A program made the translations under genes and the position numbers. From the NCBI GenBank assembly GCA_016787085.1, contig JAEUVJ010000071.1:4435-68434 (forward strand): a stretch of 64,000 bases of DNA. Direction: 5' to 3'. The notes beneath the pieces are model-generated. The model had not been told where the DNA came from and searched no databases. It worked only from the letters and a program-made list of their open reading frames with translations. Positions within the stretch are counted from its first letter, which is position 1. Every line of letters begins with the position of its first letter. Source of the stretch: Chitinophagaceae bacterium (GTDB lineage Bacteria; Bacteroidota; Bacteroidia; Chitinophagales; Chitinophagaceae). Shown here piece after piece: positions 52,927-58,336 of the stretch.

Positions 52927-52957
52927 TTGCCTTCGCCTGGCAGCGGGGGTAGGTTTG
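52927..52957 (+). promoter_or_regulatory. Candidate Bacteroidota sigma-A promoter for the 52994-58255 cluster
   Basis: Perfect -7 box TAnnTTTG ('taggtttg', 52950-52957) lies 37 nt before the ATG. A 'ttg' at 52927-52929 sits 20 nt upstream. Confidence 0.4.
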
Positions 52958-52993
52958 TAACGATCATTTTTTCTCACACCAAACGCCAGCAGC

Positions 52994-54217
52994 ATGAGAA
53001 CCATTTACCTGATCCCGGTTTTATTTTTTTTTATTTTGCCTTTCCTGACAGCCGCGCAGGATGACGGCACCAAAGCAGGACGTGTATCGCCCAAAGAACT
53101 GACCATTCCCGCTTCTCCCATCTTCGATCTGATGGGGGCTACACCCTCACAGATCAACCGCACATCCGACATCAAAGATTTTAAAGTAGACTGGTCATTG
53201 AAGTATGGCATCAACCCCAACCTTGCCATACAATCGCAACCCATCTGGGAGCTTTTTTATAACCGTAAAGACCTTGGCAAATACCAAAACGCTTCCGGTT
53301 TTATGCGTAAACTGGCTTCACTGGATATATCACTCGGTACTATCCAGGATGATAACAGTTATCGCCGGATCGGCGGCGCTGTAAAACTTAACCTTTTCCG
53401 GGAAAGGGATCCGCTGATGGCCAAAGAACTGTACGAGGATATTTCACTGAAATATGCGAACGAAAAATCAGAACTGGAAACACAGTTGAAAGAGCTGCAA
53501 TTGAAATTGGATACCAGCACTAATGTATTGGAAAAGCCCGGATTGAGATCACAGATCAAATCTACTGAAGAACAACTGAACACACAGCACTCAAGACGCA
53601 TGGGCGAGATCAATCAGCGGGCCAAAGTGTTTGTGGATGAGAACTGGAATGCCTCGTCACTGGATTTTGCTATTGGTCGTACCCACACATTTAAATCAGA
53701 TAGCTCCGGCTCGTTTGGTATGAAAAGAAATAACCGCAGCACCGGAACAGGCGCCTGGATCAATGGCAATATGGGTATCGGGAAAAAAACGCTGGTGACC
53801 TGTTTGCTCCGGAGTTTCTGGTATAATGAACAAGTGGATTTCCGGGTAAAGGACCTGGCGACCGGTAATGAAACGGCTCAGAAAACGACAGCAAAGAATT
53901 CTGTTTATAGCCTGGGTATGAATTTTCGCTATGGCGGATCGGTCTATACTTTCTTCTTCGAAATGCTGTACGAGTACAAAAAGATCAAAACGGCCGATGA
54001 GGCATTGAGCGGTGCTTATAAAACAGCCGGCAATGTGGAGATCGTCGGGTCTTCTGTCAAATGGGAAGAGATACATCCCAATACATTATCCATTGGCGGC
54101 GACTGGCGTATCAGCCGCAGTGTGATCATTAATTACGGCATGCGCTGCGTATTCGACAATAACTGGAAGTTCCGAACATTCGTACCGGTAGCCACAGTTA
54201 GTTGCATGATGCGATAA
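52994..54217 (+). CDS. Signal-peptide protein of unknown function (407 aa), outer-membrane beta-barrel-like with an internal coiled-coil segment
   Basis: 'MRTIYLIPVLFFFILPFLTAAQ' signal. C-terminal half has alternating amphipathic strands ('SLDFAIGRTHTF', 'VYSLGMNFRYGG', 'TLSIGGDWRISRS', 'VIINYGMRCVFD'). Central 'EKSELETQLKELQLKLD'. Confidence 0.6.
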   Translation: MRTIYLIPVLFFFILPFLTAAQDDGTKAGRVSPKELTIPASPIFDLMGATPSQINRTSDIKDFKVDWSLKYGINPNLAIQSQPIWELFYNRKDLGKYQNASGFMRKLASLDISLGTIQDDNSYRRIGGAVKLNLFRERDPLMAKELYEDISLKYANEKSELETQLKELQLKLDTSTNVLEKPGLRSQIKSTEEQLNTQHSRRMGEINQRAKVFVDENWNASSLDFAIGRTHTFKSDSSGSFGMKRNNRSTGTGAWINGNMGIGKKTLVTCLLRSFWYNEQVDFRVKDLATGNETAQKTTAKNSVYSLGMNFRYGGSVYTFFFEMLYEYKKIKTADEALSGAYKTAGNVEIVGSSVKWEEIHPNTLSIGGDWRISRSVIINYGMRCVFDNNWKFRTFVPVATVSCMMR

Positions 54218-54279
54218 ACGATCAGCAATCATTTTTAGTAAATCAGCCAATCATCATCATATTTAATAAAATCAGCAAC

Positions 54280-56277: not shown

Positions 56278-56296
56278 ACCAAATAATACTGGAAGT

Positions 56297-58255
56297 ATGA
56301 AAAAGATATTCTTGACCGGGATACTGGCAGGTATGGTGTTTGTGAACCTTGTTTATTCGCAATCGGGCCAGAACAGCTTCAATACTCAATTCAATAATTC
56401 CGCCACCACTCTCGATTATGAGAATGCCTACTTGCTGGGATACCTGGCAACAATGGCCTACCCGGATTATTTACGTTTCAGGGAGCCGTCACCGGTACCC
56501 GGGCCCGATGCTCCATGGGTAAAATATTTTCAGCACAGGAATGATACCTTCCTGCGAAAATTTGCGGACCGGCTGGCATATTTATTTTACGATCCAAATG
56601 ATAAGCCGCAATTGATCAGTAGTATTAACCCGGCTATCGCTAATTCGAACCTGCCTGCAAGGGACCTGTCCAACCTGTCTTTGGGGAACTTAGCTGTCAA
56701 AAAGGAGCCTCATGTAAAAACCATCGGTGGTGTGACATTTGACTTTCAATACCGCTGTTCGCCGGATGGATATGACCCCGAAGCGATCATTATTTCTACC
56801 CCATCAACCGTATTTGTAGTTTTTAGAGGTACCGATCGGGTCAGTTGCAATGATGAATCCAGCTTGAAAGGGGCCCTCGGCTATGCTGCCGGTGAATGGA
56901 TCAATACCAATTTTAAATTCCTGAAAAGGGCATGGCCTAAGTTTGAGGGTGAGGTGCACCGTGGTTTTATAGAGAGTCTTACTTATAACGGCTTTGCTGA
57001 TTCAGTAGCATCGAGGATTAAAAACAGGTATGGTGGTTCATCAAAAAAAGTATGGATCACGGGGCACAGTTTAGGAGGAGGGCATGCACAGCTATTCGCA
57101 CTGTATGCAAAACTGAACTGGAACATACAGACGCAGGGACTATATGTGTATGCCAGCCCTCATCCCGGCGACGGCGCTTTTGCTACGCAACTGAATAATG
57201 CAATCGGAAAAAACAGGATCCAGCGGTTTGAATTCCTCGATGACCCTATTCCTACATTGGCTCCGCAAGTTCCGCCCTTTTCCTATGGAAGGGCCGGTGT
57301 ACGGAACTGGTTTAAGGACATCAACCGGATGGAAAGCGGAAAAGAACAGATACTGGGCTGGGATGATGCAAAGCTCTTCTGCGGGTTGACTAATCTTGCT
57401 TTAAATTCAACAGTAAAACTGGAGAACCTGTTTTGCGGCGGCGTGTTTTGTTATCATGATCCTACCTGGCTGGTGAAAGGATTACGGAATAAAATACCCA
57501 CTTCTGCCTATTCAGCCCTGCCTCCCGATGTACCACTGCCTAAACCAGGCGAAAGCACTTGCACAGATTTCCAGATCAATAAGGGTAAGAACAATGACCC
57601 GATTATCAATACAGTTGACTGGGTACGGGATGGCATACAAAAAGGACTGGAAGGGGCATTGGAAACTGCAGAGAATATTGCCTGGCAGGCAAAGAATTTC
57701 CTTGACAATTTTACCGGGGCGGCCATTTCAGAAGGGAAGTACCGCATCACGAATATGAAGCCCAACGCCACGCATAAAACAAAACTGACCTGGCTGGAGT
57801 CGGACAAAGAAGTGGCAAAACAGGAAAGCACCCTGCGTACCTGGATCGTTGGCGACAATGACGGGAACAATACATTTACAATTGAAAAAGCGTTGCCCAT
57901 TGGTTACCGGATAAAAATGGCCTCAGGTGTAAATGAAAAAGACTGGCTTGGTAATAATACCGGAAAGAAAATTGAGTTTTATATGGAAAACCCGCTTGTA
58001 GATAATGATGATACAAACATTATGGAGAACGGCTGTGATGCCAATATGACTAACTATAACCCTTTCTGGGCGGGGCAGGTTTGGCTGTTTTACAAGGTAA
58101 AAGAACCCAATTATTATGTCATCATTAATTCAATGTCCGGGAAAGTACTGGATGCACATGATGAATGCGGGCAAAGCGGGGGAAACTGCAAGGTAAAAAC
58201 ATGGCAGCCCATCAGCAATAACCAGTCACAGATCTGGAAGCTGACCAAACAGTAA
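56297..58255 (+). CDS. Secreted class-3 (alpha/beta-hydrolase) lipase fused to a C-terminal ricin-type beta-trefoil lectin domain
   Basis: Signal peptide. 'VFVVFRGTD', nucleophile elbow 'GHSLGG' (57062-57076), 'YVYASPHPGD', 'FLDDPIPTLAP'. C-terminal QxW motifs ('GQVWLF', 'SQIWKL'). Starts 19 nt after the CDCL gene. Confidence 0.8.
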   Translation: MKKIFLTGILAGMVFVNLVYSQSGQNSFNTQFNNSATTLDYENAYLLGYLATMAYPDYLRFREPSPVPGPDAPWVKYFQHRNDTFLRKFADRLAYLFYDPNDKPQLISSINPAIANSNLPARDLSNLSLGNLAVKKEPHVKTIGGVTFDFQYRCSPDGYDPEAIIISTPSTVFVVFRGTDRVSCNDESSLKGALGYAAGEWINTNFKFLKRAWPKFEGEVHRGFIESLTYNGFADSVASRIKNRYGGSSKKVWITGHSLGGGHAQLFALYAKLNWNIQTQGLYVYASPHPGDGAFATQLNNAIGKNRIQRFEFLDDPIPTLAPQVPPFSYGRAGVRNWFKDINRMESGKEQILGWDDAKLFCGLTNLALNSTVKLENLFCGGVFCYHDPTWLVKGLRNKIPTSAYSALPPDVPLPKPGESTCTDFQINKGKNNDPIINTVDWVRDGIQKGLEGALETAENIAWQAKNFLDNFTGAAISEGKYRITNMKPNATHKTKLTWLESDKEVAKQESTLRTWIVGDNDGNNTFTIEKALPIGYRIKMASGVNEKDWLGNNTGKKIEFYMENPLVDNDDTNIMENGCDANMTNYNPFWAGQVWLFYKVKEPNYYVIINSMSGKVLDAHDECGQSGGNCKVKTWQPISNNQSQIWKLTKQ

Positions 58256-58302
58256 AATGTTCTGTATGTAAATAACCAACGGTCAAAGCGATCAGAGTAA
58301 CT

Positions 58303-58336
58303 ACGGGCAGCCCTGCCAAATGGCTGGGCTGCCCGT
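58303..58336 (+). terminator. Strong hairpin after the lipase gene (terminator-like, no clear T-run)
   Basis: 'acgggcagccc tgccaaatggct gggctgcccgt'. 11-bp perfect stem. Confidence 0.5.

Follow-up and report, generated by a model that had tools for sequence, protein, structure and literature searches.

To our knowledge, the only cholesterol-dependent cytolysin (CDC)-like proteins (CDCLs) that have been characterised are paired lipoproteins, and no single-gene CDCL has been characterised. Such proteins occur across Bacteroidota and are recognised by homology to the CDC domains D1-D3, an F/Y-F/Y...YGR motif, a Gly-Gly pair and the absence of the cholesterol-binding domain D4 with its undecapeptide and Thr-Leu motif (Evans et al. 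2020, PMC7527733; Abrahamsen et al. 2024, PMC11169675; structures 6xd4, 8g32 and 8g33). A single CDCL gene, the most frequent arrangement, is carried by 821 of the 1578 CDCL-bearing Bacteroidota genomes (PMC11169675). The present analysis concerns one such gene in a 64,000-nt stretch of a Chitinophagaceae genome (contig JAEUVJ010000071.1, positions 4,435 to 68,434; hereafter the window), where it stands between g1, the gene for an unannotated 407-aa protein, and the gene for a lectin-tagged lipase. This trio is one combination within a modular type of locus found in Chitinophagales from soil and sludge, where a highly conserved g1 and a two-component regulator stand ahead of swapped secreted lipases, pore-formers and proteases; a literature search found no description of this locus type. 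With moderate confidence, we read the locus as a modular operon for membrane-attack exoproteins that is under regulation and begins with the gene of a novel outer-membrane protein.

The evidence for this reading begins with the linkage between the genes. A profile scan with one genome per species yielded 80 g1 loci from Chitinophagaceae, Saprospiraceae and one Pedobacter. Open reading frames (ORFs) in these related loci were called with a simple ORF caller, and the downstream genes were clustered and compared with the window proteins; cargo counts refer to the 62 loci with at least 4 kb downstream of g1, and two-component counts to 66 informative loci. The g1 gene always comes first, leading one to three co-directional genes for secreted proteins at median gaps of 44 and 37.5 nt, and strand, gene order and narrow spacing are maintained across 80 genomes. 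Specifically, genes homologous to the window lipase or CDCL account for 47 of the 182 positions directly downstream of g1, against 2 of the 776 other ORFs in the same loci, and both of these exceptions lie immediately upstream of g1. These counts speak to the suspicion that three unrelated secreted-protein genes without a shared function have come to lie side by side by accident. Such a suspicion could draw on the absence of the exact trio from the nearest relatives and on a promoter box, TAnnTTTG, that on its own occurs no more often than chance; against it stand the enrichment directly downstream of g1, the arrangement conserved in 80 genomes and a conserved promoter/operator, and incidental adjacency is accordingly very improbable. 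A gene-neighbourhood comparison had been proposed in an earlier, sequence-only reading of this DNA. Once run, it showed the adjacency to be neither unique nor accidental, with the full trio in 9 of the 62 genomes.

The cargo behind g1 is drawn from a recurring set of families. Lipase_3 genes are found at 25 of the 62 loci and CDCL genes at 18, with both together at 9 loci from several genera; GDSL-like lipases (10 loci) and DUF676/PGAP1-like esterases (4 loci) bring the number of loci with any lipase or esterase to 35, and a pair of unknown families, c3 and c5, occurs at 10. Other cargo includes astacin and papain-like proteases with lectin tails, the ricin-type tail being common to lipase, papain-like and astacin-family cargo. 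Many g1 loci occupy one chromosomal slot, with DnaB and RsmE upstream and TerC, PyrD and thiolase downstream, while the cargo in between varies. The shuffled cargo constitutes a catalogue of candidate membrane-attacking enzymes.

This variation bears directly on how the trio works. The sequence-only reading had proposed a composite toxin, in which the lectin targets a membrane, the CDCL breaches it and the lipase degrades its lipids, with g1 as an anchor, exporter or immunity-like factor; in its strict form, all parts would be needed. The domain identities on which the proposal was built hold up against Pfam, the Protein Data Bank (PDB) and an alignment with perfringolysin O, the two activities could plausibly complement each other on a membrane, and the trio recurs in 9 of 62 genomes from several genera. 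However, each effector occurs about as often alone as in company (CDCL without lipase in 9 of 18 loci, lipase without CDCL in 16 of 25), and the order varies, matching the window in L019 and L055 and being reversed in L021-L023, L031, L033, L037 and L040. The closest relatives, moreover, swap the CDCL for unrelated genes: a contig with a 94% identical g1 and an 87% identical lipase has a 231-aa gene of another family, c4, in the CDCL slot, and a relative whose g1 is 86% identical and whose upstream synteny is the same has another CDCL together with an astacin protease. Nor do the parts co-evolve. Mean pairwise identity is 61% for g1, 35% for the lipases and 28% for the CDCLs, and the identity of g1 is uncorrelated with that of the lipase (Spearman 0.05) and barely correlated with that of the CDCL (0.18). 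The g1 gene also accompanies proteases, protease inhibitors and thioredoxin-like proteins. A role of g1 in immunity conflicts with its being the most conserved gene, far more so than any cargo, and with its pairing with unrelated toxins, and was rejected as unlikely. What survives of the proposal is therefore the functional linkage and the theme of membrane attack, which the wider set of loci reinforces; the obligate trio does not survive the shuffling of the cargo, and a fixed composite toxin is unlikely. Under the modular reading, CDCL and lipase would instead each attack a glycosylated membrane independently, with additive effects, and no obligate complex would be needed.

Two further cargo families deserve mention in their own right. 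The secreted unknowns c3 (~485 aa) and c5 (~590 aa, helical) are always paired in that order downstream of g1, often after a lipase, as at L010:13088-16281 and also at L006, L009, L024, L030, L043, L047, L048, L059, L070, L091 and L093. One c5 member has a weak match to Vitellogenin_N (lipid-binding) and another a match to HEAT_2; that the pair might be a cryptic CDCL pair was considered and rejected on hhalign probabilities of 2% and 0.3%. Family c4 (220-250 aa, no Pfam match) pairs with Lipase_3 genes on either side (L094:630-1325, L090:2651-3310, L013, L015, L018, L025, L028 and L067, including an Ignavibacteria contig without g1), and its members may help or inhibit the lipases.

The most constant partner of g1 is not cargo but a two-component system, which the earlier reading had missed. 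In the window, the system lies divergent from the operon on the minus strand and consists of a NarL/LuxR-type response regulator of 212 aa with a receiver and a GerE helix-turn-helix (50119..50757) and a sensor histidine kinase of 668 aa (50802..52808). The regulator matches NCBIfam NarL-family models at up to 2e-46, and its orthologs (53-92% identity; Pfam Response_reg and GerE) occupy the same position in 29 loci. The kinase comprises a signal peptide, a periplasmic TPR region of ~370 aa, one transmembrane segment, and HisKA_3 and HATPase domains; residues 430-663 form the NCBIfam kinase core, residues 15-277 match the TPR region of Porphyromonas gingivalis FimS at 1e-17, and its orthologs are likewise recorded with TPR, HisKA_3 and HATPase_c. 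A NarL-type two-component system lies no more than four genes upstream of g1 in 59 of the 66 informative loci, of which 29 have the divergent arrangement and TPR-HisKA_3 kinase of the window and 30 are co-directional, mostly with a seven-transmembrane (7TM)-HisKA_3 kinase. Two metagenome-assembled genomes (MAGs) each hold two g1 loci (L012 with L021, and L045 with L055), and these paired loci differ in both two-component-system type and cargo.

The region between the kinase and g1 carries a candidate target for this regulator. Bacteroidota promoters follow a -33/-7 consensus. In the window, a -7 box of this type, TAGGTTTG, lies on the plus strand at 52950-52957, 36 nt before the g1 ATG and 20 nt past a -33 TTG (52927-52929), and these three bases are at the same time the last three of TCACtattgtccGGTATTG (52911-52929, plus strand), a candidate response-regulator operator. 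The box by itself, to which the sequence-only reading had pointed, is weak evidence because TAnnTTTG matches in the window are no more frequent than chance (32 versus 51 expected); what gives it weight is its place in a larger conserved element. The composite TCACy-N6-7-GGTATTG-N20-TAGnTTTG, represented in the window at 52911-52957, recurs 5' of g1 orthologs in many genera, with TAGnTTTG at the identical 20-nt spacing from GGTATTG in L006, L007, L011, L018, L022, L023, L026-L028 and others. GGTATT is present in 38 of 79 regions upstream of g1 orthologs and in 3 of 79 control regions, and TCACy-N6-7-(G)GTATTG or near variants (GCGATTG, GCTATTG) lie 45-75 nt 5' of g1 start codons. Some variants are inverted repeats, that of L082 being perfect (TCACC-N6-GGTGA), and the operator-like element is present at loci with either type of two-component system (L006-L085). 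Taken together, these features suggest a Bacteroidota -33/-7 promoter with a response-regulator operator overlapping the -33 element, through which the two-component system probably switches on the operon. The conserved candidate operator can also serve as a handle for finding the regulon.

Downstream of this promoter, the layout is that of a single operon. The genes for g1 (52994-54217), the CDCL (54280-56277, 665 aa) and the lipase-lectin protein (56297-58255, 652 aa) lie on the plus strand with intergenic gaps of 62 and 19 nt. The mechanically called ORF of the CDCL begins at a TTG at 54202; the ATG at 54280 (MKKYY) is the most plausible start and is preferred because it gives a canonical signal peptide and the two short gaps. 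All three proteins have, on reading their N-termini by eye, Sec type I signal peptides cleaved just before a glutamine (...LTAA/QDD in g1, ...KNSA/QLP in the CDCL and ...LVYS/QSG in the lipase), and the same reading found no lipobox in any of them; the earlier description of three closely spaced, same-strand signal-peptide genes is borne out by both coordinates and N-termini. A GC-rich hairpin of 12 + 3 bp at 58302-58337 (plus strand), 47 nt past the lipase stop, is the probable terminator of the unit: for the 105-nt stretch around it (58256-58360), the folding energy is -39.7 kcal/mol (z = -5.0), a value equalled by none of 200 shuffles, so that the closing hairpin noted earlier is upheld. 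It is followed by ~440 nt of non-coding DNA. Candidate terminators inside the three-gene unit are at chance level (5 sites versus 6.8 expected), sigma-70 promoter and intrinsic-terminator scans also gave results at chance and are not applicable to Bacteroidota promoters, and an Rfam search of the window from 50 to 60 kb found no RNA family. The three genes thus probably form one operon, as had been suggested, because the gaps are short, one promoter/operator is conserved, one hairpin closes the unit and no internal terminator rises above chance. In this model, the NarL-type system would activate a single transcript running from just downstream of TAGGTTTG to the hairpin.

The first of the effectors is the CDCL. 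It matches Pfam Thiol_cytolysin (PF01289) at 3.6e-18 (65.9 bits versus a cutoff of 25), with domains D1-D3 at aa 133-473 (nt 54676-55698). Its KHIYYSAS aligns with KQIFYTVS of perfringolysin O and its NVDYGRLVYV with NVAYGRTIYV, and it contains MYGGN, in which G399, the second glycine of YGG, is invariant in the family alignment. The D4 domain is absent: profile matches to CDC structures stop at about position 434-441, no string resembling the undecapeptide ECTGLAWEWWR is present, and the C-terminal 195 aa have no PDB match. In its D1-D3 fold, its F/Y-F/Y...YGR motif and Gly pair, its lack of an undecapeptide or D4, and its phylum, the protein therefore resembles the Bacteroidota CDCLs. The characterised two-component toxins have two or three adjacent CDCL genes for long and short subunits, lipoprotein signals, activation by proteolysis and a co-transcribed immunity lipoprotein, BcdI (Abrahamsen et al. 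2024). The window protein differs from them in standing alone rather than as one of a long/short pair, and in bearing a type I signal rather than that of a lipoprotein: its N-terminus, MKKYYLRWVLTCLVMVIITGKNSA/Q, has no lipobox and is likely cleaved before the glutamine (read by eye). No CDCL gene is adjacent, no second CDCL or second g1 copy exists in the 64-kb window (a tblastn search with the CDCL finds only itself), the operon contains no lipoprotein gene, g1 itself lacks a lipobox, and no BcdI-like immunity lipoprotein is present at the locus. The earlier reading was right that only one CDCL is present, but the genome counts cited above show that this is not unusual. Finally, in contrast to the described CDCLs, the window protein is embedded in a locus with g1, a two-component system and lipases.

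A second set of differences concerns the profile scores and the C-terminus. The family profile built from Chitinophagaceae relatives scores 8e-44 (153 bits) against intermedilysin and about 1e-20 (76-79 bits) against Elizabethkingia CDCLs, such that this clade scores about twice as high against the single-component CDCs of Gram-positive bacteria as against the two-component CDCLs of its own phylum. Beyond D3, the protein carries a non-CDC domain (~aa 480-665, nt 55717-56274, ~180 aa) with conserved CxxC and DDE motifs, unrelated to the solved structures. We propose that the CDCL perforates the target membrane alone, like a classical CDC and without a CDCL partner, and that this family-specific domain would bind the target in place of D4. 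The locus type puts one single-CDCL clade into a regulatory and functional context of lipases, lectin tails, a two-component system and an outer-membrane partner, from which specific hypotheses on the use and the targets of these proteins follow. Within the clade, the C-terminal domain is more conserved than the pore-forming domains, and it also occurs alone in proteins of 230-275 aa at other g1 loci (L029:12618-13307, L034:10980-11804); the arginine of YGR is replaced by threonine in several members, while the window protein retains it. The public annotation of an identical CDCL (651 aa, from a Chitinophagaceae MAG) starts at 54322, 14 codons downstream of MKKYY; this start cuts off the signal peptide and was probably called wrongly. 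A metagenome scan with a narrow CDCL alignment returned only three short contigs.

The second effector is a class-3 lipase. Its Lipase_3 domain (PF01764; aa 205-324) is detected at 5.5e-17 (62.4 bits versus a cutoff of 22), it has a GHSLGG nucleophile elbow of the GxSxG type, and fungal class-3 lipases in the PDB match it at 2.5e-07, in line with its similarity to Rhizomucor and Thermomyces-type lipases. It differs from these in its length of 652 aa, with ~200 extra N-terminal residues and a linker region of ~250 aa. It carries a predicted C-terminal beta-trefoil lectin of the ricin B kind that also tags other secreted toxins and enzymes. The match to RicinB_lectin_2 (PF14200) is at 2e-06 (28.8 bits versus a cutoff of 25.6) and covers aa 593-651 only; a terminal QIW recalls the QxW motifs of three-lobed trefoils, and its homologs match PF14200 and PF00652 more strongly. 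Lipase_3 with a ricin domain is found in 168 homologs, and those from Chitinophagaceae typically sit in g1 loci. The protein is thus a new member of an annotated but unstudied architecture. Its lectin would bind surface glycans and its catalytic domain would hydrolyse acyl lipids.

The constant element of these loci is g1 itself, which, judged by its sequence, founds a previously unannotated and undescribed family. Neither Pfam nor NCBIfam has a family that matches g1, Pfam likewise gives no significant match for ten distant relatives, and the g1 alignment, run as a profile against PDB sequences, matched nothing. It has 594 close homologs, most of them 406-410 aa long (62-94% identical among the 120 matches listed), and when 1.84 billion proteins are clustered at 50% identity, the family accounts for only 197 clusters, all without annotation. 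An AlphaFold model from a diverse alignment (pLDDT 85.7, pTM 0.79) predicts ~13 long beta-strands, interrupted at aa 144-216 by a helical hairpin of 73 residues; an initial model from close homologs only (pLDDT 66.7), with non-specific Foldseek matches, is superseded. In Foldseek, FapF ranks first (E = 1.2e-05, probability 1.0), ahead of the barrels of NanC, EspP, NalP, EstA and AaaA, with probability 1.0 to the 12-stranded barrels of FapF, NanC and EspP. Target-normalised TM-scores are 0.47-0.57, highest for NanC (0.57) and 0.47-0.56 for FapF and the autotransporters, which have 12 strands to the ~13 of the model. The N-terminal segment is highly conserved, as is the tip of the helical hairpin, where D173, T174, K181, P182 and R185 are invariant; the C-terminus (nt 54203-54214) is an invariant Cys-Met-Met-Arg, with a near-invariant C385 one strand earlier. 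The model supports an outer-membrane beta-barrel and nothing more specific, in agreement with the beta-barrel-like character assigned to the protein earlier. Kinship with the fatty-acid channels FadL/TodX (PF03349), 14-stranded barrels with an N-terminal hatch, was considered and rejected, as there is no Pfam match and the Foldseek hits (E = 2e-04, TM 0.26-0.30) superpose at an RMSD of ~30 Å. The g1 gene ranks among the best-conserved of these loci and occurs in culturable strains, which opens its role to direct testing; carriers include Terrimonas ferruginea DSM 30193 (L037), Filimonas zeae CGMCC 1.15290 (L026), Flavihumibacter (L042/L046) and Pedobacter psychroterrae (L058).

We picture g1 as the constant outer-membrane conduit of the module, and tentatively prefer an uptake function, by analogy with polysaccharide utilisation loci (PULs), in which g1 would take up amphipathic breakdown products. 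This direction is preferred because the cargo converges on lipid hydrolysis via three unrelated enzyme folds, because the cargo families share no export signal, and because g1 does not co-evolve with the cargo. The locus resembles PULs of the same phylum in its adjacent sensor-regulator, its leading conserved outer-membrane barrel and its interchangeable hydrolases, some of them with carbohydrate-binding modules. It differs in having no SusC/SusD or TonB-dependent transporter and a small barrel of ~13 strands, and in cargo made up of lipases, proteases and pore-formers where PULs have glycoside hydrolases; uptake by g1, too, is putative. The KdgM/NanC porins offer a second parallel, as small specific channels co-expressed with exoenzymes to import their products, with NanC giving the top TM-score. 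However, NanC has 205-215 aa, lacks both the helical hairpin and the conserved N-terminal segment and shares no sequence similarity with g1, and the substrates of g1 would be lipid-derived. If g1 is an uptake channel, these loci would be a lipid- or membrane-directed counterpart of PULs.

The reverse direction of transport has its own merits. Under this alternative, g1 would be a dedicated translocator through which Sec-exported cargo passes unfolded, as amyloid subunits do through FapF and passengers through autotransporter barrels, with the hairpin or N-terminal segment as a plug or gate. The g1 gene heads the run in every case and immediately precedes genes for variable Sec-signal proteins, and conserved machinery with fast-changing cargo fits a secretion system. 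The cargo also has no known export route. A signal-peptide-like N-terminus is present in 123 of 152 cargo proteins and is lipobox-like in only 10 of those; type IX sorting domains (Por_Secre_tail/TIGR04183) have no Pfam match in the three window proteins and are absent among 25 of 27 Pfam families listed for 101 cargo proteins of related loci, and type IX secretion was rejected on this ground. The top Foldseek match, moreover, is FapF, followed by the translocators EspP, NalP, EstA and AaaA. FapF exports unfolded substrates via a plugged barrel with a coiled coil (PMC5557850), and, as in the type V systems, its barrel sits in the outer membrane, counts 12 strands and has helical elements, while the genes for transporter and Sec-dependent substrates share one operon. 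In contrast to these proteins, g1 belongs to none of their sequence families, has no POTRA domain and carries its helical hairpin within the barrel rather than N-terminally, and its cargo would be large folded enzymes without a recognisable common signal. Specifically, beyond the +1 glutamine general to Bacteroidota, no motif common to the cargo families follows the signal peptide or marks the C-terminus, and g1 and cargo show no co-evolution. Enzymes of 230-690 aa with conserved cysteines likely fold and oxidise in the periplasm and fit poorly through a narrow barrel of 12-14 strands. Furthermore, the cargo keeps to one functional theme, lipid and membrane attack, instead of being agnostic, and this suggests a role of g1 tied to the substrate; the uptake porin NanC matches as well as FapF, and an Ignavibacteria lipase homolog adjoins a regulator without g1. 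On balance, an export role is the main alternative to uptake, though a doubtful one. The fuller claim that g1 founds a single-component, FapF-like outer-membrane secretion pathway of Chitinophagales, serving exchangeable Sec-dependent toxins and hydrolases under dedicated two-component control, must be put as rather improbable. If g1 is nonetheless an exporter, it would represent a new secretion route in Bacteroidota, where the export of proteins outside the type IX pathway is poorly understood, and explain the release of exoproteins without type IX sorting domains.

A third possibility assigns g1 to signalling or to envelope homeostasis instead of transport, either as a feedback sensor to the TPR domain of the kinase or as a shield that would keep lipolysis products from damaging the outer membrane of the producer. 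No neighbour of g1 is more constant than the two-component system (59 of 66 loci), the large periplasmic TPR domain suits protein binding, and the tip of the g1 hairpin is conserved. Yet half of the loci use a 7TM kinase without TPR, so that a specific contact between TPR domain and g1 cannot be general, and no known precedent is matched by sequence or fold. This role is therefore unlikely.

Returning to the modular operon with g1 as a putative uptake channel, several points weigh against it. Co-transcription is deduced from spacing only. The cargo of Saprospiraceae loci has no lipid theme and consists of Kazal inhibitors and MORN-thioredoxin proteins. The TM-scores of g1 are modest (0.47-0.57), its best fold matches mix an exporter (FapF) with an uptake porin (NanC), and the FadL fatty-acid channels, as noted, superpose poorly on it. 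Barrels inserted by the BAM machinery usually have an aromatic C-terminal residue, and g1 ends in C-M-M-R. Finally, when 5.8 billion protein clusters were searched with the window CDCL in a word-indexed, non-exhaustive way, the protein itself and a single partial match of 47% identity were the only hits, so that it is a near-orphan whose activity is not confidently extrapolated.

The DNA beyond the hairpin differs from that of most relatives, in which TerC, PyrD and thiolase genes flank the unit. In the window, a short ORF at 58777-59298, possibly a remnant, encodes a Peptidase_S74 intramolecular-chaperone domain, which is typical of tail-fibre-like proteins. It is followed by the gene for a secreted protein of 364 aa (59828-60922), homologs of which with 60-83% identity are present at the g1 loci L005 and L014, and by an open frame of at least 1011 aa (60919->63999) that continues past the window edge.

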